This document shows positions 14,019 through 36,267 of a stretch of DNA of 64,000 bases, piece after piece. The stretch's first letter is position 1, and every line of letters begins with the position of its first letter. Under the pieces are notes generated by a model that had not been told where the DNA came from, searched no databases, and saw only the letters and a list, made by a program, of their open reading frames with translations. The stretch lies in the NCBI GenBank assembly GCA_965243025.1, contig CBDETY010000003.1:5280001-5344000 (forward strand). Reading direction: 5' to 3'. This DNA is from Candidatus Latescibacterota bacterium (GTDB lineage Bacteria > Latescibacterota > UBA2968 > UBA8231). The translations under genes and the position numbers were made by a program.

Positions 14019-14801
14019 TCACTCCCTCGGCAACGCCCGCAGCAATCCCCGCTCGATCAGCCCCCGGAAATGCATCGTCACGCTCGCCGCCAGGGCGCGG
14101 TCCCGCACCACCAGCCCCATCTCGATGTTCCGGTCCAACGCCGCCTCGGTCAGGTTCGCCGAGGTGATGAACACCGACTCTTCATCCGCCACCACCGCCT
14201 TGGCATGCAGCACACCCGCAGGGCCGTCCGGCTCGAGTGACCTGGGATCGTAGAACACCTCCGGGCGCCGCTCTCCCGGCCAGTCCTCGGACCAGAAGCG
14301 GTCGGCGAACCGCCTCACCAGATGTTCCTGCTCCGTGGTATCCCTGTCGCCGCGCTGGACGTTGAGCAGCAGTTTCACCTGCAAGGTCTCCACTTCGTCC
14401 ATTCGCTTCGCCAGCACCTCGAAGGCCCGCTGTCCATCGAAGTAGGCGTACGTCGACGCCCAGACCGACTTCACCGCTTGGCCCAGCATTTCCTCGTACA
14501 CCCGCCGCGTGTCCCTGGCGTGCAGCCCCGGCACTTCCGGGCCCGACCAGACCAGATCCGGTGCAGGCACCCGGGCTACCCCCTCTTCGACCGCTCGGAT
14601 CCAGGCACCTGCCGCCTTCCCGTCAATACCATTGGCGCTCAATTCTTCCACTAATGCGATCACCTCCCCGGCCCCCTCGCGCAGGTTGAGCACCGAATTG
14701 ACTGCGGCAGCTGTGCAGGGAAGCGGCAGCATGCCCGACTCCAGTGCGCTAGCCAGGCCGCGGCGCACGTGGGCGGGAAGTCGAAACAGGGATTCGGTCA
14801 C
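14019..14801 (-). CDS. drmC: DISARM phospholipase D-like nuclease DrmC
   Basis: LVWSGP, single HKD motif (LHAKAVVAD) and TSANLT...NIEMG; GTG start overlaps the drmB stop. Confidence 0.9.
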   Translation of the reverse strand: MTESLFRLPAHVRRGLASALESGMLPLPCTAAAVNSVLNLREGAGEVIALVEELSANGIDGKAAGAWIRAVEEGVARVPAPDLVWSGPEVPGLHARDTRRVYEEMLGQAVKSVWASTYAYFDGQRAFEVLAKRMDEVETLQVKLLLNVQRGDRDTTEQEHLVRRFADRFWSEDWPGERRPEVFYDPRSLEPDGPAGVLHAKAVVADEESVFITSANLTEAALDRNIEMGLVVRDRALAASVTMHFRGLIERGLLRALPRE

Positions 14802-16588
14802 CCGGGCGGCTCGAAGAAAGCCGCGCCCGTCACTCCCATGACCGGCACGACGAGGGCGCGGTCCAGGTAGTCGTTCCGCATCTCGCAGGAGGTCTCCGCC
14901 ACGAGAGCGCATCCATGGCAGGCGGCACCGTGAAGCAATCTCCCTTCGATGCTTTCACCCGGCTGGTGGTGTGCGCAGATCGGGTCGTTCGAGCACAGCT
15001 CGCTCATGAGAAGCGCCTGGAACAGGTGGTCCTCGATGTGCCGGCCCTGCTGGACCAGACCGCCGAGAGTCCCTTCCGCGTCCGGGCTTGCGGTGTAGAG
15101 GAGCAGGCCGTAGTCCTCGCCCGAACCGCCGACGTAAATCCGTTCGCGGATCGAGCTCGCGGGATATCCGCAGCGCATTGCCAGCGACTGGATCATCAGA
15201 TGGGAGAGCGAATGCAAAAGCAGGTACGGACCTCCCGGGAAGGGCCTTTCCAACTCCCGCTTCTCCATCCAGCGCCGGTGTCCGCGTTTCAACTGATCCA
15301 ACCGTTCCTGGACGGTATCTCTCGCGAGCCATGCCCGCACCGCTTCAGGACGAAGCTGCAGGAAGATCCCTTCCCCGCGGTTTTCCGTAGCTGGAAACCA
15401 CTCCGGCTCCACGGCCAGCTGTGCGAGCTCAACGTCGGTGTCGTACTCGCCGTTGATGTCCGGCATCACCGCCTCGAACCGGGAGAAAGCTGTCAGCGCC
15501 CGCACTTCCCGCAGCCGGTGCAGTTGGATCACGGCGGCGATTCCAGAGGAGAATTCCGAACTTCGCCAAAGCGGCTCCGGAAGCCGCCGGGCGTGAAAGT
15601 CCGGATCGACCGGCACGTCGTCGCCGTGTCCCTCGGGCGCGGCGAGGATGGCCTCCAGCTCGACCTGTTTCACGGGACGGTCTTCGCTGCTTCCGGTCTT
15701 GATTTCCCTGATGGCCTGGAGGACTTCCTGGTCGTCGAAACCTGCGAGGATCTCGGCGACCTTCGGCTTCCTCTTCACGAACGCCAGCTCTCCGGCTTCC
15801 TCGACTATCGACAGGTCGTCCCAGAGTTCCCGCACCGCCTGCCCGACGTCGCTTCCCCGGTCCGGAAGGGAGAGCACGCTGACCACCTGCGGGAAGTAGG
15901 CGTTGGAGGCCGTCCGGATCAGGAGCCGGCTCGGCTGACCGCAGGCCTCGTTGGCATTGCGTCCCAGCCAGGGTCTGGCCCCCTGGCAGGTACCGAGGGG
16001 ATTCATCTCCAGCTGCGTTGCCTCCGACAAGCTCCTGCGCTTCCCGCATCCACACCGGACGACCAGGTCCCCAAGGTCTCCCCCGGTACTGCGCTCATCC
16101 AGCCACAACTGCCTCTTGCAGGGGAGGCTCCCTTTATGCACGAAGTACCACCAGTCCAGGTCGTCCACATGTCCGTTCGGGCATGCCCGGACAAATCGGG
16201 TGGCGACCACCTCGTGGCCGTCGAACCGCCCCCTCTGATCCAACCCCTTTCGATGCACCAGCCGGCGTGATTGCTCCCGGTTGTCGCCATCTCCCCCTTC
16301 CTGCACAACGAACCACTCGGGAAAGCGCCAGACCCCGATTCCCCTGACGGGCTGGCTCGGATCGGTCGACTCCGGCGGCGGCGCGTACAGCCTCGGGGCC
16401 GCCACACCGGTCATGTTCCGGACTTTCCGCTCCAGTCTCGGCTCCAGGATTTCTTCGAGGTCGCCGGTCCTCGGCCAGCTATCCAAACCGCCGACAATCG
16501 CGGAGTCCTGGGGCAGATCGATCAGCGCCCCGGGCCCGAAGCTTGTGATAACTTGGCTGCTGCGGATCTGTCCGTGCGCCTGGTTCAT
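14798..16588 (-). CDS. drmB: DISARM DUF1998 protein DrmB
   Basis: RSSQVITSFGPGA, LLHSLSH, GTLGGL and Zn-binding CSNDPIC...ACHGC...SCE; 4-bp overlap with drmA. Confidence 0.92.
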   Translation of the reverse strand: MNQAHGQIRSSQVITSFGPGALIDLPQDSAIVGGLDSWPRTGDLEEILEPRLERKVRNMTGVAAPRLYAPPPESTDPSQPVRGIGVWRFPEWFVVQEGGDGDNREQSRRLVHRKGLDQRGRFDGHEVVATRFVRACPNGHVDDLDWWYFVHKGSLPCKRQLWLDERSTGGDLGDLVVRCGCGKRRSLSEATQLEMNPLGTCQGARPWLGRNANEACGQPSRLLIRTASNAYFPQVVSVLSLPDRGSDVGQAVRELWDDLSIVEEAGELAFVKRKPKVAEILAGFDDQEVLQAIREIKTGSSEDRPVKQVELEAILAAPEGHGDDVPVDPDFHARRLPEPLWRSSEFSSGIAAVIQLHRLREVRALTAFSRFEAVMPDINGEYDTDVELAQLAVEPEWFPATENRGEGIFLQLRPEAVRAWLARDTVQERLDQLKRGHRRWMEKRELERPFPGGPYLLLHSLSHLMIQSLAMRCGYPASSIRERIYVGGSGEDYGLLLYTASPDAEGTLGGLVQQGRHIEDHLFQALLMSELCSNDPICAHHQPGESIEGRLLHGAACHGCALVAETSCEMRNDYLDRALVVPVMGVTGAAFFEPPG

Positions 16589-19500
16589 CTGTCCGTTTTT
16601 TCCCGGGCTCCACCCAAGTCTTTCAGGAACAGGTTCACGTTGGGCTCAACGTCCCTCATGGAACGGTTTGCCCGGAATTTCGCGTGGTGCTCGGTTTCGA
16701 AATCCTTGTCGAGGATTTCGCGAAGCAACGGCCGTGGCCGCCGTTGCCCCGGGATTTCGTAGCGCTGATACTGGACCTCGACTCCGGCCGACTGGTAGTC
16801 GTCGATCACCTTGGTCCAGGAGTCGAGCAGGTCGACGACGCGGTTCTGCACGCTGCGCAAATACTGTTCGCGCTCTTCCTCGTCCGTGATCGGCTGGCTC
16901 CGCACCCGTTCGAGGAAGGCATCGAGCAGCATGGGCTCCAGTTCAGCCCGGATGTCGCCGATCCGTTTCACTTCCATTGCCGGCGTCAGCTCGGCCCGCC
17001 CGTGCCGGGCGAGCGTTACCAGGGCCCCGGCGAACCCCCTGTCCAGGGCGCGGGCCGAAAACGGCGTGACGCTGCCGACCTCGACGGAGCGGTAGAAGGT
17101 CTCGTGGTAGTGGCGGAAACGCTCGTAGTGAGATCGGTCCCTGGGCTTGTGGATGTTGAGCAGACTAACCACCAGGCCGGGCCGTTCGTCGTCGCGGCCG
17201 ATCCGGCTGGTGGCCTGGATGTACTCGTCGTGGCGCAGGGGCTGTCCGAGCACCACCATCAGACCGAGCCGTTGAATGTCCAGCCCCACGGAGATCATGT
17301 TGGTGGCGATTGCGCAGTCGACGCGGTCATTCTCGTGGAAGCCCAATCCCAGCCGCCGGCGGGCTTCGGCCACCTTGTCCGTGGAGACGCGCGACGTCAG
17401 CTCCACCACCTCGGAGAAGGTTCTCCGGTCCCGGAACAGCCCGGTCGTTTCACCGATTCGCTTGCGGATTCCGTACCCCTTGATGGTGTTCTGGATTTCC
17501 TCTTCGAGGATGCGCCGGGCGCCGCCCAACTCCTTCAGGCTGTTGAAATAACCCAGCACCGTCATGTACGGGTCGGCGGGGTTCTCTTCGTTGCGGCGGC
17601 CCCCCGCTTCCATGTAAGCCTTCTGGGCGGTTCCCATGAGCGCCAGCCACGCCCGGCGCATAAGCACCTTCGGGTTCCTGCCCTGGGCGGCGATTCCCAC
17701 GTATACCCGGCCCGGCACCTTGGAGGTCGTTTCCGTGCGAGCAAAGAAGGAGTCGCGCCGGTCTGGCCCGGGGGCGGGGAAGACCTGTGTCAGCGAGCGG
17801 CCGAATAGCGCCTGGATCTGGTCCTGCGCCTGCCTGACGGTGGCTGTGGAAGCAATGATCTTTGGGCGAAAGGCATTCCCTCCGGTCCCGCGCACGCAAA
17901 GAGCTTCGATCGCCGCTTCGTACAGTCCGGCAATCGTTCCCAAAGGCCCGGAGATCAGGTGCAGCTCGTCCTGGATCACCAGGTCGGGGGGCAGCAGCGG
18001 AGCCGGCAGCCGGGTTGCTCTTTCTGTATCCGTGGCGCCGTAGAACCCCCTCCCGTCATATCGGTCCGCCCCGCCGAGAAGACCGCCGGAGGGTCCCATC
18101 CAGGGCAGCGATGCGAACTTGTCCACCGTGGCGATCAGAAAGGCCGGCAACCTCCGGTAGATCGGCTCGTCCACGGCCAGGATCGGCAGCGCACGGTCGC
18201 CGCTGAACTCGCACTCGAAGTTCATGCACACGATGCGCAACTCGCGCGGCTGGTCATCGTTGGGAAGCAGCGCGAACGAGTCGGGTCCGAACGGTTCTCC
18301 GCACCAAGGGCAGCTCTCCAACGGGACCGGCGACGGCTTTCCTCTCGGGTCTGCTTTGTACTGCCTGACCTTGGTGCGCGCCGAATCCGACCGGCCGTCA
18401 CCTTTTTTCCCGAGGAGGTTGGGCGTTGCCGCCTTGCCCACCCAGAGCCCGATCTCGAAGGGCCAGTCGCCGTAGCGGCCTTCCGCCTCGGTACGCTCCA
18501 GCTCCAGTGCACAGACCAGACCCGAGGCGCGCGCGAGCTGATCGAGGGTCAGAAGTCGCAGGGTGTAGCGCATGATCACGCTTACGCCGGCGCCGGCCCG
18601 TCCCTGCGCATCCGGATGGCGCAGTCTTCTCAGCACCATGGCAAACGCCGCAAGGCCGAGATACGCTTCGGTCTTTCCGCCGCCGGTGGGGAAGAACAGC
18701 AGGTCGACCGTTTCGCGATGCTGGTCGGCAGGGTCAATCAGCCCGGGGAGATTCAGCAGGATGAAGGCCAGCTGAAAAGGCCGCCAGCTCGGCTCTTCGA
18801 TTTCCAGACGCTGGCGGAGCGCCCGGGCAACTGCCCGGTTAGCCACCCGGAAGGAATCGAGCGCGTCTTCGTCGGCCGCCAACACCGCGATCCCTCGCCC
18901 GATCCGGTCAGCTGCGAGGTCTGCCAACCGCAGCAGTTCTACGGCTGTCTCACGCCGCGTATCCTCCAAGTCCTCGACGCTCTCCCGCCGGGCAAGAACC
19001 CAGGCGCGGTACTGGTCGACGAGGGGCCGTAAAGCGTCCTCGGCTGCCGCCCCGTCGGGCAGCGAGCCAAGGGTTTCCATGGCCAGTTCGACACCCGGCA
19101 CCTCGGCGGTCTCCGTCTTTTCCACCTCGGCACGGGGGATCCACGCAGTCCGCAGGAGGTGACACTCCCCGTCGAGGATCTCCCAGTCTGCCGATACACC
19201 ATGGCCAGTAGCGTACGAGGGTGTGTCCGAGTAATGGAGATCGGCCACTCGATCATCCCACTGATTCGCGCGCGTTCCCCGCAAATCCGGCCGCGGAACA
19301 AACGGGCGCCCACCGTCGACTTCAAGCTCAGGCTGAAAGACATAGGCGCGGTCTACATCGGTCTCCAAAGGGGCCCGGTTGTTGACCAGAAAAACGGAAA
19401 CCGACCGCGTCCCAGGGGGTATGTGTTCTTCGAGGTCCTGCGCGACGACCCTGCGCTGGACAACATGGAGCTGGAGACCGCCCGACTCCGGGACGTCGCA

Positions 19501-19992
19501 GACAACAGGGTCCTCAACTTCGGTGAGTTTGAGGGTGACCTTTTGCACCCGGGGAGTCCGTTGCCAGACTGACTTCTCGTCTTCTTCGTCTTCGATCTTT
19601 ACCGGTTCATAGTCCCCCCAGGAGGCGGTTACCTCGAGTGAGTCCGTTTCCCCGGGAACGAGGAAGCTCAGCCCCATGGAGGAAGGGAAGTAGCCCTTCT
19701 TGGCGGCCTTTCTTTCCTCGTTGGACTCCTCGGCAAGACCAGTGGACTCAGGGACTTCCCCGTCCATGTCGTCATCTTCGTCCGCGTCGGCACTCGTATC
19801 AGCCGCAGACCCGGACGGGATCAGGAAACCGGTCAGATACCAGTTCGAGGGTCGTATCCACCCCGGCAGGCGCTCGTCGGCCAGGGGATGGCCGACCCAA
19901 GGCCCTACCAAATCGAGGTTCAGGGCCTCAATCAGACGGCCTCGTACTTCCAGGGAGGTACTGGGAGCGCGGTTTTTGGAATTGCTCGCCAT
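16585..19992 (-). CDS. drmA: DISARM helicase DrmA
   Basis: FPTGGGKTEAY, QDELH, ASTAT, ATNMISVGLD and YIQATSRIGR; adjacent to drmB. Confidence 0.92.
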   Translation of the reverse strand: MASNSKNRAPSTSLEVRGRLIEALNLDLVGPWVGHPLADERLPGWIRPSNWYLTGFLIPSGSAADTSADADEDDDMDGEVPESTGLAEESNEERKAAKKGYFPSSMGLSFLVPGETDSLEVTASWGDYEPVKIEDEEDEKSVWQRTPRVQKVTLKLTEVEDPVVCDVPESGGLQLHVVQRRVVAQDLEEHIPPGTRSVSVFLVNNRAPLETDVDRAYVFQPELEVDGGRPFVPRPDLRGTRANQWDDRVADLHYSDTPSYATGHGVSADWEILDGECHLLRTAWIPRAEVEKTETAEVPGVELAMETLGSLPDGAAAEDALRPLVDQYRAWVLARRESVEDLEDTRRETAVELLRLADLAADRIGRGIAVLAADEDALDSFRVANRAVARALRQRLEIEEPSWRPFQLAFILLNLPGLIDPADQHRETVDLLFFPTGGGKTEAYLGLAAFAMVLRRLRHPDAQGRAGAGVSVIMRYTLRLLTLDQLARASGLVCALELERTEAEGRYGDWPFEIGLWVGKAATPNLLGKKGDGRSDSARTKVRQYKADPRGKPSPVPLESCPWCGEPFGPDSFALLPNDDQPRELRIVCMNFECEFSGDRALPILAVDEPIYRRLPAFLIATVDKFASLPWMGPSGGLLGGADRYDGRGFYGATDTERATRLPAPLLPPDLVIQDELHLISGPLGTIAGLYEAAIEALCVRGTGGNAFRPKIIASTATVRQAQDQIQALFGRSLTQVFPAPGPDRRDSFFARTETTSKVPGRVYVGIAAQGRNPKVLMRRAWLALMGTAQKAYMEAGGRRNEENPADPYMTVLGYFNSLKELGGARRILEEEIQNTIKGYGIRKRIGETTGLFRDRRTFSEVVELTSRVSTDKVAEARRRLGLGFHENDRVDCAIATNMISVGLDIQRLGLMVVLGQPLRHDEYIQATSRIGRDDERPGLVVSLLNIHKPRDRSHYERFRHYHETFYRSVEVGSVTPFSARALDRGFAGALVTLARHGRAELTPAMEVKRIGDIRAELEPMLLDAFLERVRSQPITDEEEREQYLRSVQNRVVDLLDSWTKVIDDYQSAGVEVQYQRYEIPGQRRPRPLLREILDKDFETEHHAKFRANRSMRDVEPNVNLFLKDLGGAREKTDR

Positions 19993-22520: not shown

Positions 22521-22533
22521 TCGTAAGTCCGGG

Positions 22534-23060: not shown

Positions 23061-24953
23061 TCACAACGAAATCCCCATTTCTCCCAAGAACCGCGAAGGC
23101 TGTTTCTCCCAGCCAGAATAAACCTCGGAAAAGGTCATAGTTAGGCTTGCCTGGGCTCGTGTAATTGCCACGAAGCAGTTGCGTCGCTCCTCTTCGATGG
23201 CGCGATCGCCGCTTTGTATAGCATAATAGGAGGGCAATTGATCTTCTGCCAACCCAACCAGGTAAACGTGTTGGAACTCCTTGCCCTTGGCGAGGTGTAT
23301 CGTCAAACACTGGATGTCGTTCCTGCCCGGAGGCGATGTTTTTTGCCGCAGGTCCAGCTCCTGAAGGAACTGGTTAAGGGTTGTTTTTCCTCCGTGCTGT
23401 TGCCGGATTTTGCTTTCAAGTTCCCGCCAGACCTGTTTCTCCGCCATCGTTTCGTCGAAACCCGAATCCTGCTCGTAAGAGGTGTCGCTGCTTTCAGAGT
23501 CCCAACGGAAGACGTTATTCACAAAATCCCGATACTCGAGACGTTCCAGAAGATGATCTCGCAGGGTACACAACAACGGGTGGCCAGCTTGACCTGACGG
23601 TGGAGTCGCGGCCTCGACGAATCCTCTCAGCAGCGAATCTCCGGACTGGCCACTTTCCATGTCCGCATCTTCGGGATCAACGTTTACCCCGGTCAGATCT
23701 CCAAATGCCTTGTACAATACTGCCAACTGACCGGCATCGTTCGGGGAATTGGCCAAGCGTAATCCCGAGTGGATGAAACGCAGCAACGGAGATTCGAATT
23801 CTTTTTTCTGCCTGACGAGATACGGGGACAATCCGGCGCTATTCAGCGCTTCTTCAGCGGCTGCCAAAAGCTTGGTATTTCGGGCAAGAATGGTGCAATC
23901 GCCGGGATCGAGGGATCGCTCAACAATATCCCGGGCAATCCACGCCATCTCTTGGTCGGTGTCGGGAAATTTTATGTATCTGACTACATCGGAACCGGAC
24001 GATACGACGGTGGATACCAGCCCCTTTTTATCCGCCGCCCGGTCAAGGTTGTGCCGGATCAGGTTGTTGGCCAGTTCAATAACCTGCGGTGGACATCGGT
24101 AACTCTCCGGGAGTTGGACGACCTCCATGTCGTAGTCCTCCCTGAGTTTCCGAAGGCGTTCCGGACTGGCCCCGTTCCACTGGTAGATGATTTGGTCGTC
24201 GTCCGCTACCACGAACAGGTTGGACTTTCGGTCAGGGCAGAGGAGGTGCAGCAAGCAATCCTGGGCTTTGTTTGTATCCTGATACTCGTCGACGCAAATG
24301 AACGGATATACAGTTCGATAGTGGTGGGCAATTCTGGGCCGTTCGCGGAACAGGCGCAGACAGCAGAGCAACAAGGTTCCGAAATCGAGGTAATTCTTCC
24401 GGATCAGGAGACGCATGTAGGTGTTGTAAACAGGTCGAATCCAGTCCCAATCGGAGTGGAACGGAAGCGGTTCATCGTCCCCGAAATGGCCATCTCGAAG
24501 CAAGCGATCGACCATCTGCACGATACCTTTCCCGGTCAAGATCTCCGGCAAGTCTGCGAAGTCCGCGCCCTCAATTGCTTCGTCCAGTAAGCTGTGGCGG
24601 TCTGCGTCCTGGGTAAGGATCTTGAAGTCTGGGCGCAGGCCGAAATGACTGCCGTGTTGCCGCAGCACCTCCGCCGCAAAGGAGTGGAACGTCGTCAGAC
24701 GAGCTCGATGCGCCTCCGGGCCGAGCAGTTGAGATGCCCGAGACCTCATTTCGTCGGCGGCTTTAGTGGTAAACGTAAGCGCCAGAACTTTGAAGCGACT
24801 CTCGGGAAAATCCTGAATCAGCCGTGCGACACGTATGGTCAATACCCGGGTCTTCCCCGACCCCGGTCCGGCAAGGACCAGCATGGGGCCGTCGTTCCAC
24901 GCCACTGCGTTCCGCTGATTGGCGTTCAGACCTTCCATTTCGAGCATGGTCAT
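23061..24953 (-). CDS. gajB: UvrD/Rep superfamily-1 helicase, Gabija GajB-like
   Basis: AGPGSGKT, VDEYQD, DDDQIIYQW, YRCP, TIHLAKGKEF and FVAITRA; 4-bp overlap with the OLD nuclease gene. Confidence 0.85.
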   Translation of the reverse strand: MTMLEMEGLNANQRNAVAWNDGPMLVLAGPGSGKTRVLTIRVARLIQDFPESRFKVLALTFTTKAADEMRSRASQLLGPEAHRARLTTFHSFAAEVLRQHGSHFGLRPDFKILTQDADRHSLLDEAIEGADFADLPEILTGKGIVQMVDRLLRDGHFGDDEPLPFHSDWDWIRPVYNTYMRLLIRKNYLDFGTLLLCCLRLFRERPRIAHHYRTVYPFICVDEYQDTNKAQDCLLHLLCPDRKSNLFVVADDDQIIYQWNGASPERLRKLREDYDMEVVQLPESYRCPPQVIELANNLIRHNLDRAADKKGLVSTVVSSGSDVVRYIKFPDTDQEMAWIARDIVERSLDPGDCTILARNTKLLAAAEEALNSAGLSPYLVRQKKEFESPLLRFIHSGLRLANSPNDAGQLAVLYKAFGDLTGVNVDPEDADMESGQSGDSLLRGFVEAATPPSGQAGHPLLCTLRDHLLERLEYRDFVNNVFRWDSESSDTSYEQDSGFDETMAEKQVWRELESKIRQQHGGKTTLNQFLQELDLRQKTSPPGRNDIQCLTIHLAKGKEFQHVYLVGLAEDQLPSYYAIQSGDRAIEEERRNCFVAITRAQASLTMTFSEVYSGWEKQPSRFLGEMGISL

Positions 24954-26647
24954 TCCCCGGCGAGGTCGATTGCCTTATTGAGAATATCCGAGAGCGGCCC
25001 GGGAACCGGTAGAGCATTCTCGGTTGCTGTCATTTTCGCCACGGCTTCGGCGGCGGCTGCCGGTTTGCTGAAGCTCTTGGGCAACGCATCCAGAACCTCC
25101 AGCCAGTATTGAGCGGTCCCTTTCGTAGATGATGGGTGAGGCTTCTGTGAGGACATCCTTGATTCGTAAATTTCACCGAACCCATTTTCGCAAAGAAGCA
25201 GCTCAACGTTGTCGTAGGGAATTGCGAGTCGGTCAGTCTCGGATGCTCCGCCCAACTGTGCCTTTACTCGGTTCTCGTACTTCTTGCGCCCCTGGTCGTC
25301 GTCCAGTACACAATACCAAGCGATACCGAGCTGATTGGCAACCTTCGCAAGCATCCCCACAACCGTCTGGCTGAACTCCACGCAGCGAACGCCCTCCCGC
25401 TCGAGATCCAGCCCAAGCGTTTCGGCAGCGCCGGAAAACAGCGTTGTTTCCGTCTCTCCTTCGACCAGAAGCCAGCACCTCGAAAAAAGCAACTCGCCGC
25501 GGGTCCGCCGGACGTGGAAATCGAACTTTCGTTCCTCTTCGGGGTTCAGGGTCCCCGGCTGTATTCGGTACGCCTTGATCCCCCCGTCGTCGTGTACGAA
25601 ACGCCGAATGGCCGAAGCATTGACGCTGCCAAGCAGATCGCCGCTGTGGGTCGATACCAGCTTCTGCCCCGGCAGGTCGCGCACCAGGCTCATCAGGGAG
25701 CGGATGGCAGACGGGTGCAGGTGGGCCTCCGGTTCCTCAAGGGCCGTAATCGGTTCTGCCGCGGGGTCGAGATCGGAGAGCTGGCTGCGGAGGAAAGCGC
25801 CGAACAGCAACAGCACAGTCAGACTCTGGGTTCCCTCGCCTTGGAATTCCACCGGAATCCTGGCGCCGGAACGGGAAGCGAGGCTCACCTGGGTGCGGGA
25901 CAGCAAGGAAAAGAGCTTGGTCGGGAGCGCATCGATGGCGACGATATCGGTGGCGCCGAACTCGATAACCCGCGCGGCGTCTTCAAGACGCTGGCGGATT
26001 TCCAGCAACGGTTGATGCGCTTCGATCAGCCGGCGGTTCAGATCGGCGAGTTCCTGTTCCAGCTCATTCTTTTCATCCTCGGGAACGCCAAGCTCCGCAA
26101 GGAAGGTGCGCCAGAAGCGGCCGTTGGAAACAAAATGCCTCGAAGCATCCCGCAGTGCGGAAAGGTAGAACGCCGGCACCACTCTCTGAAAAGCAGTGAG
26201 TTGGGCAGTCGTCCGTCCGGGCAAGGGCTGGCCGTTCGCATCGAGAAAGTCCCAATCCGTTGAGGATTCGAGGACATCAGGCTCGAATGACGAAGTTACC
26301 CGCAGGGTCACCCGGCGTCGGTCCTCTTCATCGAACGCGAGGAGCCCTTCAAGCGTTTGCACGACTTCGTCAGGCCATGGTTCGGCGTCCGTCTCGACGA
26401 ACGACAGTGTTATCTGGATCGGGTCGGAGGCCGCAGGCGACGAGTCTTCGTCGGAAAGGTGATAATCGTACTCGTTGAACGGACCGCGTCCTCGGCCACG
26501 GAGCCGCTCCAAACAGATGCGGATAGCCTCCAGAAACGCTGTCTTGCCCGAGTTGTTCTCGCCGATCAGGACCGTCGTTTCGTCGAGGTCGAGGCTGAGT
26601 TCCTTGATGCAACGGAAGTTGCGTATCTCGACGCTGGTCAGCTTCAT
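24950..26647 (-). CDS. gajA: OLD-family ATP-dependent endonuclease (ABC ATPase + TOPRIM), Gabija GajA-like
   Basis: GENNSGKT, GEGTQS, EEPEAHLHP, STHS and TOPRIM LVEGETE...DDD. Confidence 0.87.
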   Translation of the reverse strand: MKLTSVEIRNFRCIKELSLDLDETTVLIGENNSGKTAFLEAIRICLERLRGRGRGPFNEYDYHLSDEDSSPAASDPIQITLSFVETDAEPWPDEVVQTLEGLLAFDEEDRRRVTLRVTSSFEPDVLESSTDWDFLDANGQPLPGRTTAQLTAFQRVVPAFYLSALRDASRHFVSNGRFWRTFLAELGVPEDEKNELEQELADLNRRLIEAHQPLLEIRQRLEDAARVIEFGATDIVAIDALPTKLFSLLSRTQVSLASRSGARIPVEFQGEGTQSLTVLLLFGAFLRSQLSDLDPAAEPITALEEPEAHLHPSAIRSLMSLVRDLPGQKLVSTHSGDLLGSVNASAIRRFVHDDGGIKAYRIQPGTLNPEEERKFDFHVRRTRGELLFSRCWLLVEGETETTLFSGAAETLGLDLEREGVRCVEFSQTVVGMLAKVANQLGIAWYCVLDDDQGRKKYENRVKAQLGGASETDRLAIPYDNVELLLCENGFGEIYESRMSSQKPHPSSTKGTAQYWLEVLDALPKSFSKPAAAAEAVAKMTATENALPVPGPLSDILNKAIDLAGE

Positions 26648-26752: not shown

Positions 26753-27250
26753 TCAATTCTCATTTCGAATTCTAATTGCTTCCTCAACAGCGTTCGCAAG
26801 GTGCTCAGAAATCCAAGCATATCGCTCTTTGCTGTTACTCCCGCCGGGATTGTAACACTTGACAATTGAGGAAAGCCTATTGCCTGAACTTCCATGGGTG
26901 ATGAAATCGAACGGATTTTTGCCAAGTGATGAAACCATTCCGTGGTAGTCCTTCAATCCGTGAATGCGGATTCCGACTACCCCCATTCCATCATCCCAGG
27001 ATTTGATAATTTCGTGGTTGATCCATTTACGATTTGCCGTATCGGATCCGACTAATACGACCGTACAGGAACGGTACATCATCTGACCCGCAATCCATTT
27101 CCTTATTGCAGTATCGCCTCCTTTCTTAACTGTCTCCCAGTCGTTATCTGTCGCGGGTCTGTTTCCTTCTATGCTGCCGATATTGCGGACCATCCCTGCC
27201 CGCCAGTTGTCTGGGTTGTAGTGGAAGCTGTAAAACACTCTACGAGCCAT
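26753..27250 (-). CDS. TIR-like protein (DUF1863/MTH538, Thoeris ThsB-like)
   Basis: RVFYSFHY, DNDWE, SCTVVLVG and RKWINHEI (conserved catalytic Glu), GIRIH. Confidence 0.85.
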   Translation of the reverse strand: MARRVFYSFHYNPDNWRAGMVRNIGSIEGNRPATDNDWETVKKGGDTAIRKWIAGQMMYRSCTVVLVGSDTANRKWINHEIIKSWDDGMGVVGIRIHGLKDYHGMVSSLGKNPFDFITHGSSGNRLSSIVKCYNPGGSNSKERYAWISEHLANAVEEAIRIRNEN

Positions 27251-27662
27251 TAGGTTGTTCTCCGGAAACATTGATGACTACCAAGACAATCGCGATGATG
27301 AGAGCCCCATAGAACGGAACCAGGGTTATCGAAAAGGTCGAGCCAAGCCACGAGCGCTTCCAACCGGTTCGGAACGAAGCGGTGGCCATTGAAAAGTCGA
27401 CTTCACTTTCGTCTATTGACCGGACGCGGTCGTATAGCGCCCGAAACAGGCGTTCCTGCCACAGGTAGTAGCCGTCAAGTCCCCAGAAGACGAGGACAGG
27501 TACCAATGCAATGTAGGCAACATCGAGGCGGTCCTCCTTCGCCAAGAGAACGAACAGGGCGGTGACCAAAACAACGGTCCACCCTTTCACTCGGAATGAG
27601 TCGGTCGCTAGGCGGTTGACTACTCCTTGGATCAATTCAAGATGCTTTAGCTTCGATTCCAT
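27240..27662 (-). CDS. Small integral membrane protein (about 3 TM segments) coupled to the TIR gene
   Basis: KHLELIQGVVNRL...KGW, three hydrophobic segments and YYLWQERLFRALYD; 11-bp overlap with the TIR gene; ATG at 27662 after CAGGA. Confidence 0.8.
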   Translation of the reverse strand: MESKLKHLELIQGVVNRLATDSFRVKGWTVVLVTALFVLLAKEDRLDVAYIALVPVLVFWGLDGYYLWQERLFRALYDRVRSIDESEVDFSMATASFRTGWKRSWLGSTFSITLVPFYGALIIAIVLVVINVSGEQPNGS

Positions 27663-28945: not shown

Positions 28946-31900
28946 TTACTCGTTATCGTCGTCTTCCCAGTAGGCTGGTTTGGTGCCTGTCTCTCGTTTG
29001 GGGCGCTTGGCGTTCAGTTCGAGAAGCCGCGCCAGCACCTCGTCCCGGATGTCGTCGGGCCAGCGGCAGCGGTAGGGCTTTTTTCGGTTGCCCCACTCTT
29101 CCTCGTCGATCTCGTAGTCGAGGAGGAACTGGCAGTCGGTGGGGATGTCATTCCAACCATAGGCATCGAGTACGACCCGGTCCATTGCGGCGTGGAGATC
29201 GCGGAGCTTGGCGATGTCGCGGTCGTCTTCGTCAGGGTCGTGGAAGCGGTTGTAGGTCTTGGTCAGGCCTTCGTCGTTACGGACCATGAGGTTGGCCCGG
29301 AAGTCGTAGTAGGTCTGGCCGGCGGCTTCAAGGCCAGATTGAGTAGCCCAACCCTCGGGGAAGGGGAAGGTCTCGAAGCAGTCGGAAGGTGAGTAGTTGA
29401 TGTCATCCTTCATTGTAGAACTGAAGAACCTGGCCCATATCTCATGGACGTTAGACTGGAGAACACAGAACGCAGAATATTCCTGAAATGGGAAAATGAC
29501 CAGTTTGTGGGAAGGGAGCATCCCTTTCCCAAGAAATGCGAAGTGGATCTTGTTGCTGATGATTCCGCACACGAGATAGCGGTTCAGTCCCGAAATAGCT
29601 GACCGAAGCTGGGGGCGCTCGTTAGCGTACTGCCACCAACGTTCCCTGTGTGAGCGGTCAATTGGCGACTTGCCGAGTTCGTCTCGTGCGGGTTTGACCC
29701 GCTCCTCTACGATCTCCAGCAGACTGGGCCAATCCGCTGCTACCGGATCTGGATAGTCGAGTGGTACGATTCCCTGCCTCAGCCATTCGCGACGCTGACC
29801 TTCGTCCGCGCCTATCCACCGAGCGTCTAGATCTTCCTTGCGCAGTGGATAATTTTGAAAGTTTATCGCATAGCGATGATGCATGTGAGTCGGGCTGGTG
29901 TTCACCTCTTCACCGCCAATATATGGAAAGATCACCTTCTGGTTCTGCGGGTTCTGTTCGACTAGGCGGTGCATCTCCGCCACGGATGAGGCGACATTCT
30001 TCCTGTCGGTGTCGTCGAAGGTAAAGCCCATGCCTCGGAGAAACACCCCCACGAAGCTCTTGCCGGTGTTCTCCCTGACCCGCTCCGGGTCATCGTTCCC
30101 GCCGCGGTGAAAGAGGAAGGCGGTGATAGTCTCAACCACGTCTCCATCGAGTCGCTTCGTTTCGATGTGCCGTCCCTTATGGACGTGGAGAATACTGACC
30201 ACCACGGCGGCCTGACCCGGCCACTTGACGCGCCGACGGGCACGGTAAATGTCCCCACCGTTCCCACAAATCCAACGCAGGCCGCTGGCGCGGGTATCGC
30301 CTTGGGCGATGGTGTTGGTAGCGATCAGGCCAAAGGCGCCGTTTGGGCGGATCAGATCGTAGACGCGTCGGAAGAAGTGTGCCACGAGGTCGGCATTACT
30401 GTTCGAGTGCAAGTGGACTGATGCAAGCCAATCGCGATATCCGGCACCAAGGACCGTGCTAATCCGCTTCCCTCCGAGGAACGGAGGATTCCCGACGATG
30501 CCGTCGAACCCCGGATTCTTCCGGTCAAACACCTCCGGGAACTCGATCTCCCAGTGAAAGGGGGCCAGCGGCGGGTCCGCACGGCGCTGCTCCTCAAGCC
30601 AGCCGCGGTGCTGATCTGCCCTTCGCTCGTAAACGGCAGTGGCGTACTCAACCCGTTTAGTCTCCCGCTCCTTCGCTTTGGTCCCCTCGAAGAAGGCGGC
30701 CGTCACCAGATCGCCGAAGAGGCTGATCTTGCCAAGCTCGAAGCGGGCTTCATCCCACCAATCATGCAGTTCCCGATCCGCGACCTCGTCGCCTGCCTCA
30801 CGGATCCGCCGTCGGAGTTGGGCTACCTTGGCGATCTGGCGGTGTACTTCCGTGGTCTCGAACCCCAGGTCGGCCTCTTCCGCACGGCGATCCCAGTGGA
30901 AGACTTCTATCTGCTTCCGGGACAGCCCGACCAGCGAGTCCCCGTGCCGCAGGGCGTGGTCGATGAATGTCAGCGGATGGTCCTTGGCCAGGGTCGCTAG
31001 CCATAGCGAAACCTTGGCGAGGTCGACCGCCATGGGGTTCCGGTCCACTCCGTACAGGCAGCGCTGTGCGATCAACCGGCGGGCGAAGATTCCCTCATCC
31101 TCGTCAGGCGGGATTCCCGGAATCTCGCCGTGGGCGCGCCAAGCCTCGACAAGAGCGTCGCCGAGCTGGCGGCAGGCCTCCACCAGGAAGGCCCCCGATC
31201 CCATGGCTGGGTCGCATACCTTCAGGTCCAGAATTTTTTCAGGCCGCGGCGGCTTCCCGTCCTCTCCCTGAAGCCGCGCCAGGATAGGCTCCAGGGTCGT
31301 CCGCACGATCGGCTCCGTCAGCTCGCGCGGCGTGTAGTGCGAGCCGGAGCGGCGCCTTTCTTCACTGGGTTGCAGCACCATCGCTCCCTGGGGCACTAAG
31401 TCGGGGGTGGCATCGACCTCGATCACCGGGCTGAGGGCCGCGTGCAGGTCCTCCAGCGTTCCGGCATCCTTCACCGCTTTCCTGATTTTGTCTCCGAGCT
31501 TTCGGTCGGCGTGGTCCCGGAGCCACTTGTCGCGCCGGGCACCCGGCTCCGCGGCGAGTGCTTCGAGGTCCACGGTTGTAGGAGCGCCCTGCTTCTTGGC
31601 CGCCTTGATCGCCACGGACCTCCCGCTGGCGGTTTCCAGGCGGAAACCCATCATGGTCTCGTAGACCGAGCCGATCTGCTCCACGTCGAGGGCCCGGTAG
31701 GAGAGCCGCTCGCCGTCGAGGACCAGCAGCTTCTCCAGGGCGCGGTAGATGGTGCCGTCCGATACGAGCGGCGGCTCGATGCGCTCGTGAATCTGGCGCG
31801 CCACCATGTCCGGCCGGCCTTCGAGGAACGGGAACCGGTCCGGGTCGAAGAGGACACCGTGCCGCCTGGGCAGGGTCATCTCCCCGGTTTCGGCGCCGTC

Positions 31901-32968
31901 GTGAATCAGGCGGAAAAGCACCAGCAACTGCGCCCAGGCACTGAAGCGCTGGTCCATGGTGTCGGGAAACAGGGCCGCGTCCTCACGCAGGCGCTCGTAC
32001 AGTCCCACGAGGGAGTAGTAGCGCTGGAAGGTCTCGTCCTTCGGCAGCATGTCCCGCTCTTCGGCGTAGAGCAGGAACACGAGCCGCAGGTTCACGGTCA
32101 GCAGGGCGTGGTAGACGCGGTCGGGATTGTCCGCGAGGGTCTGCCGCAGCAGCTCTCCCTTCGATGCGTCGTGGGCGGCCTGGAATCCCCGCAACATCTC
32201 ATACAGGGCGTGGAGCACCTGCTCGGCTAGCCGCTCGCTGACCTCGTTCTGGAACTTCCGGCTGTCCTCGAGCAAGGCGGCCAGCCGCTTGGAACTGGGC
32301 AACGATAACAGCCGGCTTTCCCTCAACAGCAGGCGCATGGCGGTGCAGATCGGCCTGCCGGAAGTCTGCACCATCTCCGCCACGCGGAAGTCCATCCAGC
32401 CGGAGCTTTCACCCCGGGGCGCCGAGATCAGCCGGATCGACAAGCCGTTGAACAGCAGACCAGCCTTTACCTCGGTGCGGCGGAGAAGTCGCTCCATCCT
32501 GCTGTGGGGAGAGGCCTCGAGCGCTCCTGAGCCCTTCACCTCTTTATCGAAGTCCTGCCCCGGTTCCAGGACCTGTACGAGGAGCTGCCAGTGAGACTCC
32601 CCTTCCCGGGGGCTCCGCTCGCGAACGGCGAAGTCGGGGGCGAGGGTTTCCCCATCTGCGGTGGTTACTACGAGCTCGTCAGGGATGGGACTTTCCGCGG
32701 TGCCGGCGTAACCCTTGGGCGAGAAGTTCCATTCGAGAACGGTCCTCGCGAAAGCCTCGAAGTCCGGCAACCACGGCACCGGATCGGCATCCTGCAGGAG
32801 CGTCCTCTCCTCGACGCAGTCACGCAGCCGTCGCTGCCCTTCGGCGTCCTGCCGGTCAAGTATGGCACCTGCCCGCACCAGGGCCGGCGCGGAGACGACA
32901 AGGCCGCTCGGCTGGACGAAGCCGATCCACTCGAGGTGCCTGAGTATCTGCGGGTCCAGCTTGGCCAT
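28946..32968 (-). CDS. drmMI: DISARM class 1 N6-adenine DNA methyltransferase DrmMI
   Basis: GSHYTP, CDPAMGSGAF, GNPPF and C-terminal TRD with FETFPF; ATG at 32968 directly after the drmD stop. Confidence 0.9.
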   Translation of the reverse strand: MAKLDPQILRHLEWIGFVQPSGLVVSAPALVRAGAILDRQDAEGQRRLRDCVEERTLLQDADPVPWLPDFEAFARTVLEWNFSPKGYAGTAESPIPDELVVTTADGETLAPDFAVRERSPREGESHWQLLVQVLEPGQDFDKEVKGSGALEASPHSRMERLLRRTEVKAGLLFNGLSIRLISAPRGESSGWMDFRVAEMVQTSGRPICTAMRLLLRESRLLSLPSSKRLAALLEDSRKFQNEVSERLAEQVLHALYEMLRGFQAAHDASKGELLRQTLADNPDRVYHALLTVNLRLVFLLYAEERDMLPKDETFQRYYSLVGLYERLREDAALFPDTMDQRFSAWAQLLVLFRLIHDGAETGEMTLPRRHGVLFDPDRFPFLEGRPDMVARQIHERIEPPLVSDGTIYRALEKLLVLDGERLSYRALDVEQIGSVYETMMGFRLETASGRSVAIKAAKKQGAPTTVDLEALAAEPGARRDKWLRDHADRKLGDKIRKAVKDAGTLEDLHAALSPVIEVDATPDLVPQGAMVLQPSEERRRSGSHYTPRELTEPIVRTTLEPILARLQGEDGKPPRPEKILDLKVCDPAMGSGAFLVEACRQLGDALVEAWRAHGEIPGIPPDEDEGIFARRLIAQRCLYGVDRNPMAVDLAKVSLWLATLAKDHPLTFIDHALRHGDSLVGLSRKQIEVFHWDRRAEEADLGFETTEVHRQIAKVAQLRRRIREAGDEVADRELHDWWDEARFELGKISLFGDLVTAAFFEGTKAKERETKRVEYATAVYERRADQHRGWLEEQRRADPPLAPFHWEIEFPEVFDRKNPGFDGIVGNPPFLGGKRISTVLGAGYRDWLASVHLHSNSNADLVAHFFRRVYDLIRPNGAFGLIATNTIAQGDTRASGLRWICGNGGDIYRARRRVKWPGQAAVVVSILHVHKGRHIETKRLDGDVVETITAFLFHRGGNDDPERVRENTGKSFVGVFLRGMGFTFDDTDRKNVASSVAEMHRLVEQNPQNQKVIFPYIGGEEVNTSPTHMHHRYAINFQNYPLRKEDLDARWIGADEGQRREWLRQGIVPLDYPDPVAADWPSLLEIVEERVKPARDELGKSPIDRSHRERWWQYANERPQLRSAISGLNRYLVCGIISNKIHFAFLGKGMLPSHKLVIFPFQEYSAFCVLQSNVHEIWARFFSSTMKDDINYSPSDCFETFPFPEGWATQSGLEAAGQTYYDFRANLMVRNDEGLTKTYNRFHDPDEDDRDIAKLRDLHAAMDRVVLDAYGWNDIPTDCQFLLDYEIDEEEWGNRKKPYRCRWPDDIRDEVLARLLELNAKRPKRETGTKPAYWEDDDNE

Positions 32969-32970
32969 GC

Positions 32971-35900
32971 TCAGTTGGTCTCCGGCCACAGGTAGGCCAG
33001 GCCGACGGGCTCAACCCGGGTTGCCCGCACCTCGTAGAACTCGCGTATGCGGGCGGGTTCGACTTCAAGGTCCTTGTCGAACTGTTCGAGACGCCGCCGC
33101 CACCCCCGCATGTTCGCTTCGACTTGGTCCCGCTCCTCCTTTTCGAAGCCCAGGGTCAACTGCTTGTAGTCGCCGCGGTCGTACCTCGCGAGTTCCTCTA
33201 CCACTCGTTGGCGCTGGCGCTCCAGCGTCGTCCGCAGATCCTGCTCCTCCCGGGTGCCGCGCTCGGCCAGACGCTTAACCGCGCTGGCGGCCAGCTCCTC
33301 CGCCCGCGGCTCCAACTGCGGCAGCAGTTCCTCGATATCCTGCGCTGCGGTCTCCAGAAGCCGTTCCCGGATCGTCTCGTGCGGCAGGCGCATCCCGTTT
33401 CCGGTCAGCGCTTCCTCAAGCAGGTCGAGCGTCCGCAGCTCGGTTTCCCGGGCATACGCCCGGAGGGGCCCTTTTCGCTTCGAAGCCTCGACCCATCTCG
33501 CGGCAACCGGAACCAGCTCTTCGTGCAGGCGCTCGGCTCCGCGTCCGTACAGCGAAAGCCGTCCGAGCAGGATAACGCGCGGTATCGAATCCCTGGCCTG
33601 CGCCAGGCATGCCCGCGACAGGTCGTTGTAGATAAAGCCCTGGGCCCGGAACCGGGCTAGCAGCCGTTGTGCCACGCGCTGCTCCAGGTGCAGGTGGACG
33701 CTGTCCTCGGTGACCGCGCCGGGGTCCTCGAACACGACCGGCCGAATCGGCGCCTCCCGGCGCCAGTCGGTTACCTTCTGATCCGGCTTCTTTGGCTGTC
33801 GCAGGGTATCGAGGGTGGACGACCAGCTGGCGTCCGTTTCCGCCCTCTGGTCGAGAGCCGGAAACTCCCAAACCCGTCGTCCCTCCTGGTCGCGAGTCTC
33901 CTCCAGCGGATCCGCCCCCAGCAGTTCGAGCGAGCAGGAAAGCGCATCCCGGAAGGCTCCTTCCTCGAAGCGGACCCATCCGCGCGAACCCTGGAGCAGT
34001 GACTGGCAGCGGGCGATCTGATCCTTCAGGTCCTCCTGGCGCTCGCGGGCGCCCTCCAGCTCCTCTTCTGCGACCCGCTTCCGCTCCTCGTCCAGATCGG
34101 CATTCTCGATCTCTTCAGCGAGCTGGGCGGCGGTCGCGTGGCGGATACCGCCGCGAAGCAGCCGTTCGACATCGTCGTCGATGACCTTCGACAGGCTGCC
34201 CAGCTCCCGCTTGATCCTCTCCGTTTTCCCGACCAGCACCCCGAGAACTCGGTCCTCCGCCCGCTGGGGCAGGACGAAGTAGTGGCAGCGCACCTCCCGG
34301 GCTGGCTGCAGCTTGCGGTCGATGCGGCCGTTCCTCTGCTCGATCCTTCCCGGGTTCCAGGGCAGGTCGAAGTGGAACAGGTCGGTGCAGTGGGCCTGGA
34401 AGTTCAGACCTTCCCGCGCCGCATCCGTCGCCAGCAGAATGCGCAACGGGTCCTTGGCGGGATGGGTGTTGAAGCGCTTCTGGATCTCCCGTCGATTCTT
34501 CGAGCTGACCAGCCCGTCAATCACCTCGATGCGCTCATCCGCAAGGTCCGTTCCTGCGATCGCTTCCTCCAGGATGTTCCGCAGGTAGCGCTTGGTGCCT
34601 TCCCGGTTCTCGGTGAAGATCAGCACCCGGCGGTCGTTCCAGGGGACCGGCTCACCCTGCGCCAGCTCGCCGAAGGCAGGCAGCCCGGGGCAGAGGTTTT
34701 CCCGTATCCAATCGATCAGCCGCCGCACCTTGGCGTCGGGCAGGTACCGCGACTCCTCGGCGATTTTCTCCATCCGGTCCAGAAGCTTCTGTTCCCGGCG
34801 CCACAGCTCTTCGGCCCTTTCGTCTCGCGCACCCCCTTCCTCGGCCGCGACCGTCATCGCCTCGACCTCGGCCTCTTCTTCGGCTTCCAGCTGATCCTCT
34901 TCCCACTCCCCCCGCTCGTCATCGGAGTCCGGCGCCGTCCGCAGCAGGCTGTCCTGCTCTTCGGATTCGGGAATCTCGGCTGCGGCTTCCTGCTCACGTT
35001 CCCACTGCTTCACCACGGTGCGGCGATGCACCTTGAGGGTGCGCGCGAAAGCCTCGATGGAGGAGAGCAGGCGTTGCTGCAGCCCGACGACGAGCAGCCC
35101 GGCCGCGGCCTTGGCCCTCCGCGAGGTCGTCGCGTGCCGCTCCTCCCGGGCGGTGCGGTACCGATCGAGCAGCTTCGACAGAAGGATCTCGGGGGCGTCG
35201 GGCGGCAGGTTGTCGATCTCCAGCCTCTCGACATTGCGGCTGGGGAATCCCCCCTGGATCTCCCGGATGTCCTCCTTGAGGCGGCGCACCATCACCTCCT
35301 CGAGCTCGCTCTTTCCGCGGATCTTCACCCCGCGCGTGAACCGGTACGGGTCGAGCAGTTCCAGCAGGGTGGAGAAGCTGTTCGAGTGGCCGTTGTGGGG
35401 TGTGGCGGAGAGGAACAGTCGATGTTCGAAGCGGCCGCACAGGTCCCGGACGGCGCGCGTGAACTTGGTCTCGATCCCGTAGCGGCCCCCGCTTGAAGGT
35501 GCCGCGTGGTGGGCTTCGTCGAGGATCAGCAGACTCCCCGGCAGCAATCCTCCCAGCCATTCCCGCATGGGATCGGCGTAGGTGGGATCGATGAGGAGGT
35601 TGTGCGAGATCAGGAAACGGCTGTGCGTCCGCCACGGGTTCACCCCGAACCCCCGCTCCCGGCGAACCCGCGCCAGGTAGCGCCGGTCCAGAATCTCGAA
35701 GACCAGTCCGAAGCGCTCCTCCAACTCCCCCCTCCACTGCTCGAGCACCGAGGGGGGAGCCGATACCACGATTGTCTTGGCCTTCCTTCGCAACAGCAGC
35801 TCCCGGGCGATCAGGCCTGCCTCGATCGTCTTCCCGAGCCCGGTGTCGTCGGCGATGAACAGGTTCACCCGGGGCAGGCGCAGGGCCTTGCGCAGGGGCT

Positions 35901-36267
35901 CCATCTGGTAGGCGTCGATCTTGATGCCGGCGCGGAATGGGGACTGGAACAGGTTAGGGTCGGTCGCCGTGACGCAGTTCCAGCGCAGGGTGTGGAGGAA
36001 GGCGGCGAAGTGCCGGGGTGAGTCGAACCCTTTCGACGCGAGATCCGCCCAGCCCTCTTCCTCGAGAATCAGGCGGTCGATCTCGTAATCCCAGTAGACT
36101 TCGAGCTCCTGGCCCTGGGCGTCGTCGTCGGCGCAGGCGAGGCGAACGCGAGGTGATGCCGCTCCGTTGGCTACCACCTCCTCGACCAACCAGCGGCGGG
36201 AACGGACCAGGACCAGCTGACCCGGTTCCGGAGGTGTTTCGGGCAGGTTCCTTGTAATAGATGTCAT
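32971..36267 (-). CDS. drmD: DISARM SNF2-like helicase DrmD
   Basis: ADDTGLGKT, DEAHH, SATPHNG, TDAAREGLN and EQRNGRIDR. Confidence 0.92.
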   Translation of the reverse strand: MTSITRNLPETPPEPGQLVLVRSRRWLVEEVVANGAASPRVRLACADDDAQGQELEVYWDYEIDRLILEEEGWADLASKGFDSPRHFAAFLHTLRWNCVTATDPNLFQSPFRAGIKIDAYQMEPLRKALRLPRVNLFIADDTGLGKTIEAGLIARELLLRRKAKTIVVSAPPSVLEQWRGELEERFGLVFEILDRRYLARVRRERGFGVNPWRTHSRFLISHNLLIDPTYADPMREWLGGLLPGSLLILDEAHHAAPSSGGRYGIETKFTRAVRDLCGRFEHRLFLSATPHNGHSNSFSTLLELLDPYRFTRGVKIRGKSELEEVMVRRLKEDIREIQGGFPSRNVERLEIDNLPPDAPEILLSKLLDRYRTAREERHATTSRRAKAAAGLLVVGLQQRLLSSIEAFARTLKVHRRTVVKQWEREQEAAAEIPESEEQDSLLRTAPDSDDERGEWEEDQLEAEEEAEVEAMTVAAEEGGARDERAEELWRREQKLLDRMEKIAEESRYLPDAKVRRLIDWIRENLCPGLPAFGELAQGEPVPWNDRRVLIFTENREGTKRYLRNILEEAIAGTDLADERIEVIDGLVSSKNRREIQKRFNTHPAKDPLRILLATDAAREGLNFQAHCTDLFHFDLPWNPGRIEQRNGRIDRKLQPAREVRCHYFVLPQRAEDRVLGVLVGKTERIKRELGSLSKVIDDDVERLLRGGIRHATAAQLAEEIENADLDEERKRVAEEELEGARERQEDLKDQIARCQSLLQGSRGWVRFEEGAFRDALSCSLELLGADPLEETRDQEGRRVWEFPALDQRAETDASWSSTLDTLRQPKKPDQKVTDWRREAPIRPVVFEDPGAVTEDSVHLHLEQRVAQRLLARFRAQGFIYNDLSRACLAQARDSIPRVILLGRLSLYGRGAERLHEELVPVAARWVEASKRKGPLRAYARETELRTLDLLEEALTGNGMRLPHETIRERLLETAAQDIEELLPQLEPRAEELAASAVKRLAERGTREEQDLRTTLERQRQRVVEELARYDRGDYKQLTLGFEKEERDQVEANMRGWRRRLEQFDKDLEVEPARIREFYEVRATRVEPVGLAYLWPETN

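Follow-up and report, generated by a model that had tools for sequence, protein, structure and literature searches.

The window analysed here is a 64,000-nucleotide stretch of contig CBDETY010000003.1 from a Candidatus Latescibacterota bacterium. Its minus strand carries two overlapping genes, one for a small protein with three predicted membrane helices and the other for a TIR protein related to ThsB of the Thoeris defence systems. The pair is real and intact, and its genes make it very probable that it works as a module of the Thoeris type in which the effector is a membrane protein. The genes are placed as follows.

27240..27662, minus strand: gene of the three-helix membrane protein (140 amino acids; PADLOC PDC-M50A family; putative signal-gated effector)
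26753..27250, minus strand: gene of the ThsB-type TIR protein (165 amino acids; PDC-M50B / ThsB1 family; putative phage sensor and signal synthase)
27240..27250, minus strand: 11-bp overlap of the two genes, read from the sequence

A preliminary description of this locus had reported a 140-residue membrane protein overlapping a 165-residue TIR protein by 11 bp, with the conserved glutamate of the latter intact, and the open reading frames (ORFs) and the sequence confirm it. The membrane protein has the N-terminal residues MESKLKHLELIQ. The motifs singled out in the preliminary description were located as KHLELIQGVVNRLATDSFRVKGW and DGYYLWQERLFRALYD in the membrane protein and WINHEI in the TIR protein. 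The membrane ORF has a longer, GTG-started frame that extends to 27863; the ATG at 27662 is taken as the start because the homologues and all four PDC-M50A hidden Markov models (HMMs) begin there. A Shine-Dalgarno-like AGGA is positioned 9-12 nt 5' of this ATG. The TIR protein begins MARRVFYSF, and GGAG is present upstream of its start; the HMMs begin at residue 8 of the longer frame that an alternative ATG at 27271 would open. The stop codon of the membrane gene occupies 27240-27242 and the start codon of the TIR gene 27248-27250. No promoter-like or terminator-like site was found between the two genes, and their 11-bp overlap suggests translational coupling within one operon.

The two proteins

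The membrane protein matches the PADLOC PDC-M50A HMM PDLC04686 over residues 1-130 of 140 (E = 9.5e-48) and the other three PDC-M50A HMMs with E values from 1.2e-37 to 2.8e-19; PADLOC-DB 2.0 contains four HMMs for PDC-M50A and one for PDC-M50B. The membrane family matched no Pfam or NCBIfam family, and the ESM Atlas clusters nearest to the protein are likewise without a Pfam family. According to Kyte-Doolittle windows and an AlphaFold2 (AF2) model, the hydrophobic segments span approximately residues 27-42, 47-62, and 108-131. The AF2 monomer model, built with 30 homologues, has a mean predicted local distance difference test (pLDDT) score of 88.6 and is composed of helices 2-42, 46-82, 105-109, and 115-133. 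Five lysine or arginine residues are located in residues 1-26, seven in residues 63-107, one in the loop 43-46, and none in the C-terminal tail. By the positive-inside rule, the protein is therefore predicted to have its N-terminus inside and its C-terminus outside the cell. Among the 30 homologues, 39 alignment columns are invariant, and nearly all of the charged or aromatic ones are on the predicted cytoplasmic side. Among these are K6, H7, E9, Q12, R17, K26, W28, D63, Y65, E70, R71, R74, Y77, R81, and D89.

The TIR protein matches the Pfam family PF08937 (ThsB_TIR) with an E value of 3.9e-26 and 91.8 bits (cut-off 21.2). Of the PADLOC models, ThsB1 (PDLC00433, 4.5e-67) is a better match than PDC-M50B (PDLC04688, 3.7e-63). 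Glu80, which is part of the motif WINHEI, is invariant in all 112 aligned relatives, and we take it to be the catalytic residue, as in TIR NADases.

The TIR at 26753..27250 is the sole ThsB_TIR match in the whole genome. The HMM of ThsA1 (PDLC00407) has no match anywhere in the genome, which is 96% complete, so that the effector of type I Thoeris is not found there. The genome contains one weak SIR2_2 match (22.6 bits), 4.4 Mb from the pair, and its only Macro domain is about 3 Mb away. In the window, the PADLOC scan covered 22 larger ORFs between 11981 and 44937. The preliminary description had found no SIR2-SLOG, Macro, or caspase effector in the window; in the whole-genome searches, too, neither the SIR2_2 match nor the Macro domain is near the pair, and caspase-like effectors were not searched for. 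With ThsA and a further TIR both missing from the genome and no Macro domain close by, the TIR is left with the membrane protein as its only candidate partner.

Linkage of the two families and exchange of effectors

The linkage of the two genes was counted once from each of them. For the membrane gene, 80 loci were retained from the 127 relatives of a genome scan; for the TIR, 80 loci were retained from the 352 relatives of a metagenome scan, and in these the TIRs are 68-78% identical to that of the window. The membrane gene is followed, at -7 to 240 bp, by the start of a same-strand relative of the window TIR in 41 of the 80 membrane-gene loci. The remaining 39 loci include 11 with a Pfam TIR within 1.3 kb and two more (L053 and L001) with a TIR recognised by PADLOC, overall within about 2.2 kb, which brings the membrane-gene loci with a TIR to 54/80. 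From the other side, the membrane family is adjacent in 61/80 TIR-selected loci: directly upstream of the TIR in 55, downstream in five, and 621 bp upstream in one. On plasmids, an annotated TIR gene adjoins the membrane gene in ten of the 12 loci viewed, which come from hosts as diverse as E. coli, Klebsiella, Campylobacter, lactobacilli, Priestia, Gordonia, and a haloarchaeon. Co-occurrence of the membrane family with TIR had been proposed as a check in the preliminary description, and the two are linked across many phyla. Chance adjacency was rejected on the strength of these counts.

The membrane family comprises 867 clusters at 90% identity and 4875 representatives at 50% identity (E <= 0.001). 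It is thus very widespread, yet it has no Pfam or NCBIfam name. In the phylum of the window it is present in 31 of 168 genomes, a patchy distribution typical of defence genes. The family is also encoded on 131-142 plasmids of PLSDB, where all copies are annotated by the Prokaryotic Genome Annotation Pipeline (PGAP) as 'hypothetical protein'; 40 of the plasmid records are from Klebsiella and 36 from Escherichia. In E. coli and Klebsiella, the membrane/TIR pair is found on conjugative IncF plasmids (L178, L176, L179), in one case between copies of IS6/IS26.

The 19 TIR-selected loci that have no membrane gene include four with flanks too short to judge. Among the 15 judgeable ones, ThsA1 is the neighbour in ten (E <= 1e-156) and a second, longer ThsB is present in four; the remaining locus, L160, was outside the scan, its ORF layout being the same as in one of the four. 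In a maximum-likelihood tree of 75 distinct TIRs, sequences linked to ThsA are interspersed with those linked to the membrane gene. Six changes of the ThsA label are needed on this tree, at least four of them forced by well-supported branches. Since ThsA and the membrane protein have been exchanged repeatedly within one narrow clade of TIRs, the two effectors are most simply read as responding to one and the same molecule; that of ThsA is 3'cADPR, which is therefore the predicted signal.

The second ThsB proteins of the loci L119, L130, L158, and L170 are 385-408 amino acids long and match PDLC00434; these TIR loci have neither ThsA nor the membrane gene. In L119, L158, and L170 the second ThsB is followed by an ORF of 204-268 amino acids, which no PADLOC model matched and which may encode another effector.

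The membrane module also occurs in combination with other domains. The proteins P0181 and P0484 consist of SLOG domains with the module fused C-terminally. On a plasmid of Gordonia terrae (L180:1554-3064) it is positioned C-terminal to a HIT domain in a protein of 340 amino acids, next to a ThsB TIR of 163 amino acids, and on three further actinobacterial plasmids the gene that matches the membrane module is annotated as HIT. At some loci the membrane gene has a SLOG, Macro, or deoxyribosyltransferase-like gene as its neighbour, and in 3/80 membrane-gene loci the sole recognised neighbour is SLOG or deoxyribosyltransferase-like. In relatives from the same genus (L001:3328-7074, L084, L085), the membrane gene is 87-89% identical to that of the window and its start is overlapped by a DarG-like Macro gene; the gene of a 525-residue AAA ATPase follows the membrane gene, and the ThsB TIR is found only 2.1 kb downstream. 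SLOG, HIT, and Macro domains are sensors of nucleotides or ADP-ribose. The partnerships therefore point to the membrane module as the executing part, with the other domains as sensors.

The roles of the two proteins could also be reversed, the TIR being an effector that depletes NAD+, with the membrane protein sensing for it, anchoring it, or inhibiting it rather than executing the response. CBASS, Pycsar, pAgo, and Avs systems all include bacterial TIRs that act as NADases, and the membrane protein has no recognised ligand-binding domain. Such an arrangement is permitted for unverified TIR pairs by the limitations paragraph of a preprint on Thoeris systems (Yirmiya et al., bioRxiv 10.64898/2025.12.03.692087). 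However, some TIRs 68-78% identical to that of the window are paired with ThsA1, for which the TIR makes the signal, and are interspersed with membrane-paired TIRs on the tree, and the fusions to SLOG and HIT are arranged like an effector with a nucleotide as its input. The reversal of roles is improbable.

A diffusible signal would be dispensable if the phage-sensing TIR docked on the cytoplasmic helices of the membrane protein and opened it by direct contact. The 11-bp overlap of the genes, which suggests co-translation in a fixed proportion, would suit this arrangement, as would a membrane effector without a dedicated sensor domain. The order of the genes varies, however, with the membrane gene downstream of the TIR in 5/61 loci and on several plasmids. 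Furthermore, TIR_2-type TIRs, TIR-TPR proteins, and TIRs of 390 amino acids all partner the same membrane family, and the TIR clade of the window also serves ThsA. Such promiscuity of partners is more in keeping with a shared small molecule than with a co-evolved interface, and opening by direct contact is likewise improbable.

The favoured reading is that the pair forms a two-gene Thoeris-type abortive-infection module in which the TIR makes a signal that gates the membrane effector, and we give it a probability of about 0.65. In the first step, the ThsB-type TIR would sense the phage and convert NAD+ into a signal derived from ADP-ribose. The signal would most probably be 3'cADPR (1''-3' gcADPR), since ThsA, the type I receptor of 3'cADPR, is served by TIRs very closely related to this one. 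In the second step, the signal would be sensed on the cytoplasmic face of the 140-residue protein. The sensing face may consist of the N-terminal amphipathic helix and, beyond the second membrane helix, the helix and loop that follow it; these parts bear nearly all the invariant charged and aromatic residues. The membrane protein would then assemble into, or open as, a homo-oligomer that breaches the membrane, and the cell would be arrested or killed before the phage progeny mature.

Setting within a class 1 DISARM operon

The pair is located within a class 1 DISARM operon (14019-36267), in an insert of about 9 kb that separates DrmMI from DrmA. The recognised genes of DISARM and of the Gabija system in the insert are listed below.

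32971..36267, minus strand: DrmD (PADLOC PDLC02621, E = 0)
28946..32989, minus strand: DrmMI (PADLOC PDLC02643, E = 0)
24950..26647, minus strand: GajA of Gabija (PADLOC 4e-198), directly downstream of the TIR gene
23061..24953, minus strand: GajB of Gabija (PADLOC 6.2e-235), part of a system separate from the pair
16585..19992, minus strand: DrmA (PADLOC 5.8e-268)
14798..16588, minus strand: DrmB (PADLOC 2.2e-79)
14019..14912, minus strand: DrmC (PADLOC 4e-77)

The insert contains, in order, a 339-residue DUF6236-like gene, the membrane/TIR pair, Gabija (GajA, GajB), a 127-residue gene followed by a 404-residue DUF6575 gene, and a 430-residue gene. The GC content is 0.51-0.58 from approximately 19.5 to 30 kb of the window, compared with 0.62-0.67 on either side. 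As part of the favoured reading, and with the same degree of confidence, the pair is considered a horizontally acquired cassette inside the DISARM operon.

The DISARM insert thus holds at least three further defence-type units, namely the TIR/membrane pair, Gabija, and genes without an assigned function. The 127-residue and the 404-residue DUF6575 genes (21366-22917, minus strand) overlap each other and have no PADLOC match. They recur at 72-82% identity beside the membrane-gene cassette in relatives of the same genus or family (L001:1766-3331, L089, L084, L085, L002), and at 40-44% identity 3 kb from the pair in a metagenome-assembled genome from Binatia. They may be a further two-gene defence candidate. 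The 339-residue gene (27805-28824, minus strand) is positioned 142 bp upstream of the pair. It has a weak match to DUF6236 (E = 0.021) and no PADLOC match; its ESM Atlas neighbours are DUF6236 clusters (0.97-0.98), and it encodes one C-terminal hydrophobic segment. The gene was considered as a third component of the system and rejected, since a tblastn search found it in none of 91 related loci.

Comparison with catalogued systems and named Thoeris types

By its profile matches, the pair belongs to PDC-M50, a candidate system of PADLOC-DB 2.0. Both proteins match the HMMs over their full length, and the genes are adjacent on one strand and embedded in DISARM, in the way the candidates were defined. 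The PDC systems are 145 candidates that were identified because their genes are embedded in BREX, DISARM, and type I restriction-modification systems ('guilt by embedding'), and their authors describe them as untested (Payne et al., bioRxiv 10.1101/2024.01.29.577857). A full-text literature search for 'PDC-M50' returned no paper.

The preliminary description had put the system forward as a candidate for an undescribed one, and that claim is not supported. It had itself named prior cataloguing as a result that would overturn it, and both proteins match PDC-M50. The claim is weakened further by the December 2025 preprint of Yirmiya et al., in which TIRs with three-helix membrane effectors are described as type V Thoeris. 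The other part of the proposal, namely that a TIR of the ThsB type signals to a small membrane effector instead of to ThsA, agrees with the linkage, the exchange of effectors, and the SLOG, HIT, and Macro partners. A possible ligand site at the basic and aromatic residues that flank the helices was also proposed there.

The preprint (10.64898/2025.12.03.692087) was the only publication returned by a literature search on Thoeris, ThsF, and DUF2270. According to its authors, type V Thoeris consists of ThsB and the three-helix protein ThsF (DUF2270), which is activated by 3'cADPR. ThsF was modelled there as a channel-like homo-heptamer with basic pockets between the protomers. The type V TIRs fall in a cluster that also serves type I, and type V is reported to be enriched in Bacteroidota. 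The pair resembles type V in the ThsB-type TIR beside a small effector with three membrane helices, in the TIR cluster common with type I, and in the expected signal. It differs in that the stated label of ThsF, Pfam PF10028, is matched neither by the window protein nor by the scanned members of its family. On balance, the pair is probably of the kind represented by type V Thoeris, and with similar confidence the membrane family is likely to be the ThsF/DUF2270 family.

Several results weigh against this assignment or against the proposed module as a whole. PF10028 has no match to the window protein at E <= 10 and none to eight plasmid members at E <= 1. In a six-frame search, it was found in none of the 168 genomes of the phylum, 31 of which contain the membrane family, and in none of five further genomes, all of which contain it. 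Alignments by hhalign of 60 or 225 family members to 25 or 118 DUF2270 proteins gave probabilities of 2.3% and 1.3%. No ligand-binding domain was recognisable in the membrane protein in Pfam and NCBIfam scans. A Foldseek search of the AF2 monomer against the Protein Data Bank (PDB) returned only generic helical proteins, with a best E value of 0.89. In 23 of the 80 membrane-gene loci there is no recognised partner within 1.3 kb, several of these loci being cut by contig ends. According to the same preprint, one type V variant is not activated by 3'cADPR, and the identity of the signal is therefore unsafe to assume for every member. The match to PDC-M50, which is among the untested candidates, supplies a name and no function, and the function of the module at this locus is deduced from its genes.

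The results with PF10028 and hhalign, together with the PGAP annotation of all plasmid copies as hypothetical proteins, would be explained if the membrane family were a separate family of receptor-effectors and not ThsF. The pair would then be a Thoeris type beyond the eleven named. However, DUF2270 is the commonest weak Pfam match among the members scanned singly (9/60, best E = 0.0043, below threshold), and reciprocal local HMM searches between the membrane family and DUF2270 gave weak matches of 8-10 bits with colinear alignments. Moreover, among 401 Bacteroidota genomes, PDC-M50A was found in 12, including the centre genome chosen for holding the family, whereas PF10028 was found in two, in neither case near a TIR-like ORF, although type V is reported to be enriched in that phylum. 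The family is also so abundant beside TIRs that the screen of the preprint would hardly have overlooked it. Filing the membrane protein under PF10028 was rejected, since the Pfam, six-frame, hhalign, and reciprocal HMM signals are only weak. It is possible that the preprint uses a more sensitive annotation, so that the failure of PF10028 lowers the claim of type V membership without removing it. A separate family is a serious possibility, short of being favoured.

A narrower and more doubtful proposal is that the 140-residue protein is a minimal receptor-effector, distinct from ThsF/DUF2270, which binds 3'cADPR between its protomers without a sensor domain and is reused as a module with SLOG, HIT, and Macro for other signals. 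If this were true, the pair would be a Thoeris type beyond those named, and the family would be a general and exchangeable membrane 'executioner' cassette for immunity by nucleotide signalling.

Whichever family the membrane protein belongs to, the pair shares features with other Thoeris types. It is similar to type I in that its TIR matches ThsB1 better than PDC-M50B and in that TIRs 68-78% identical to it adjoin ThsA1 in 10/80 loci. It differs from type I in that ThsA, a SIR2-SLOG NADase, is absent from the genome and the effector is a membrane protein. Type II (ThsB and Macro-TM, signalling by His-ADPR) and type VII (ThsB and SLATT, signalling by cADPR) also have a membrane-spanning effector gated by the product of a TIR. 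A further likeness is that, in same-genus relatives (L001), the start of the membrane gene is overlapped by a DarG-like Macro gene, whereas the 140-residue protein itself has no Macro match. Unlike the effector of type VII, the window protein has no SLATT match, and there is none among the Pfam matches listed for 60 family members at E <= 1, which comprise the first 25 of 37 families; membership in SLATT was rejected.

Outside the Thoeris types, the study by Wang et al. (Nat Commun 2024, PMC11350192) describes nine new TIR systems of E. coli. Five of them are two-gene systems that need both genes and the active site of the TIR, and one of the nine has a transmembrane partner. In the two-gene system TIR-IV, escape mutants map to the major capsid protein. 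The listed hosts of TIR-IV include Klebsiella, E. coli, Campylobacter jejuni, Lactiplantibacillus plantarum, Levilactobacillus brevis, Priestia megaterium, and Providencia. The table of that paper contains none of 18 accession numbers that belong to plasmid copies of the membrane family, and a paper on the lactococcal plasmidome (PMC11381338) makes no mention of TIR. The likeness of the pair to TIR-IV, a lead toward a possible identity, is in the two-gene composition with a TIR and in a host list that overlaps strikingly with the hosts of the membrane-family plasmids.

Pairs of this kind, formed of a TIR and a membrane protein, are already catalogued and have probably been tested elsewhere. 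The value of the pair as a discovery is small, as it is contained in a public defence catalogue and the same architecture was shown elsewhere to defend against phage.

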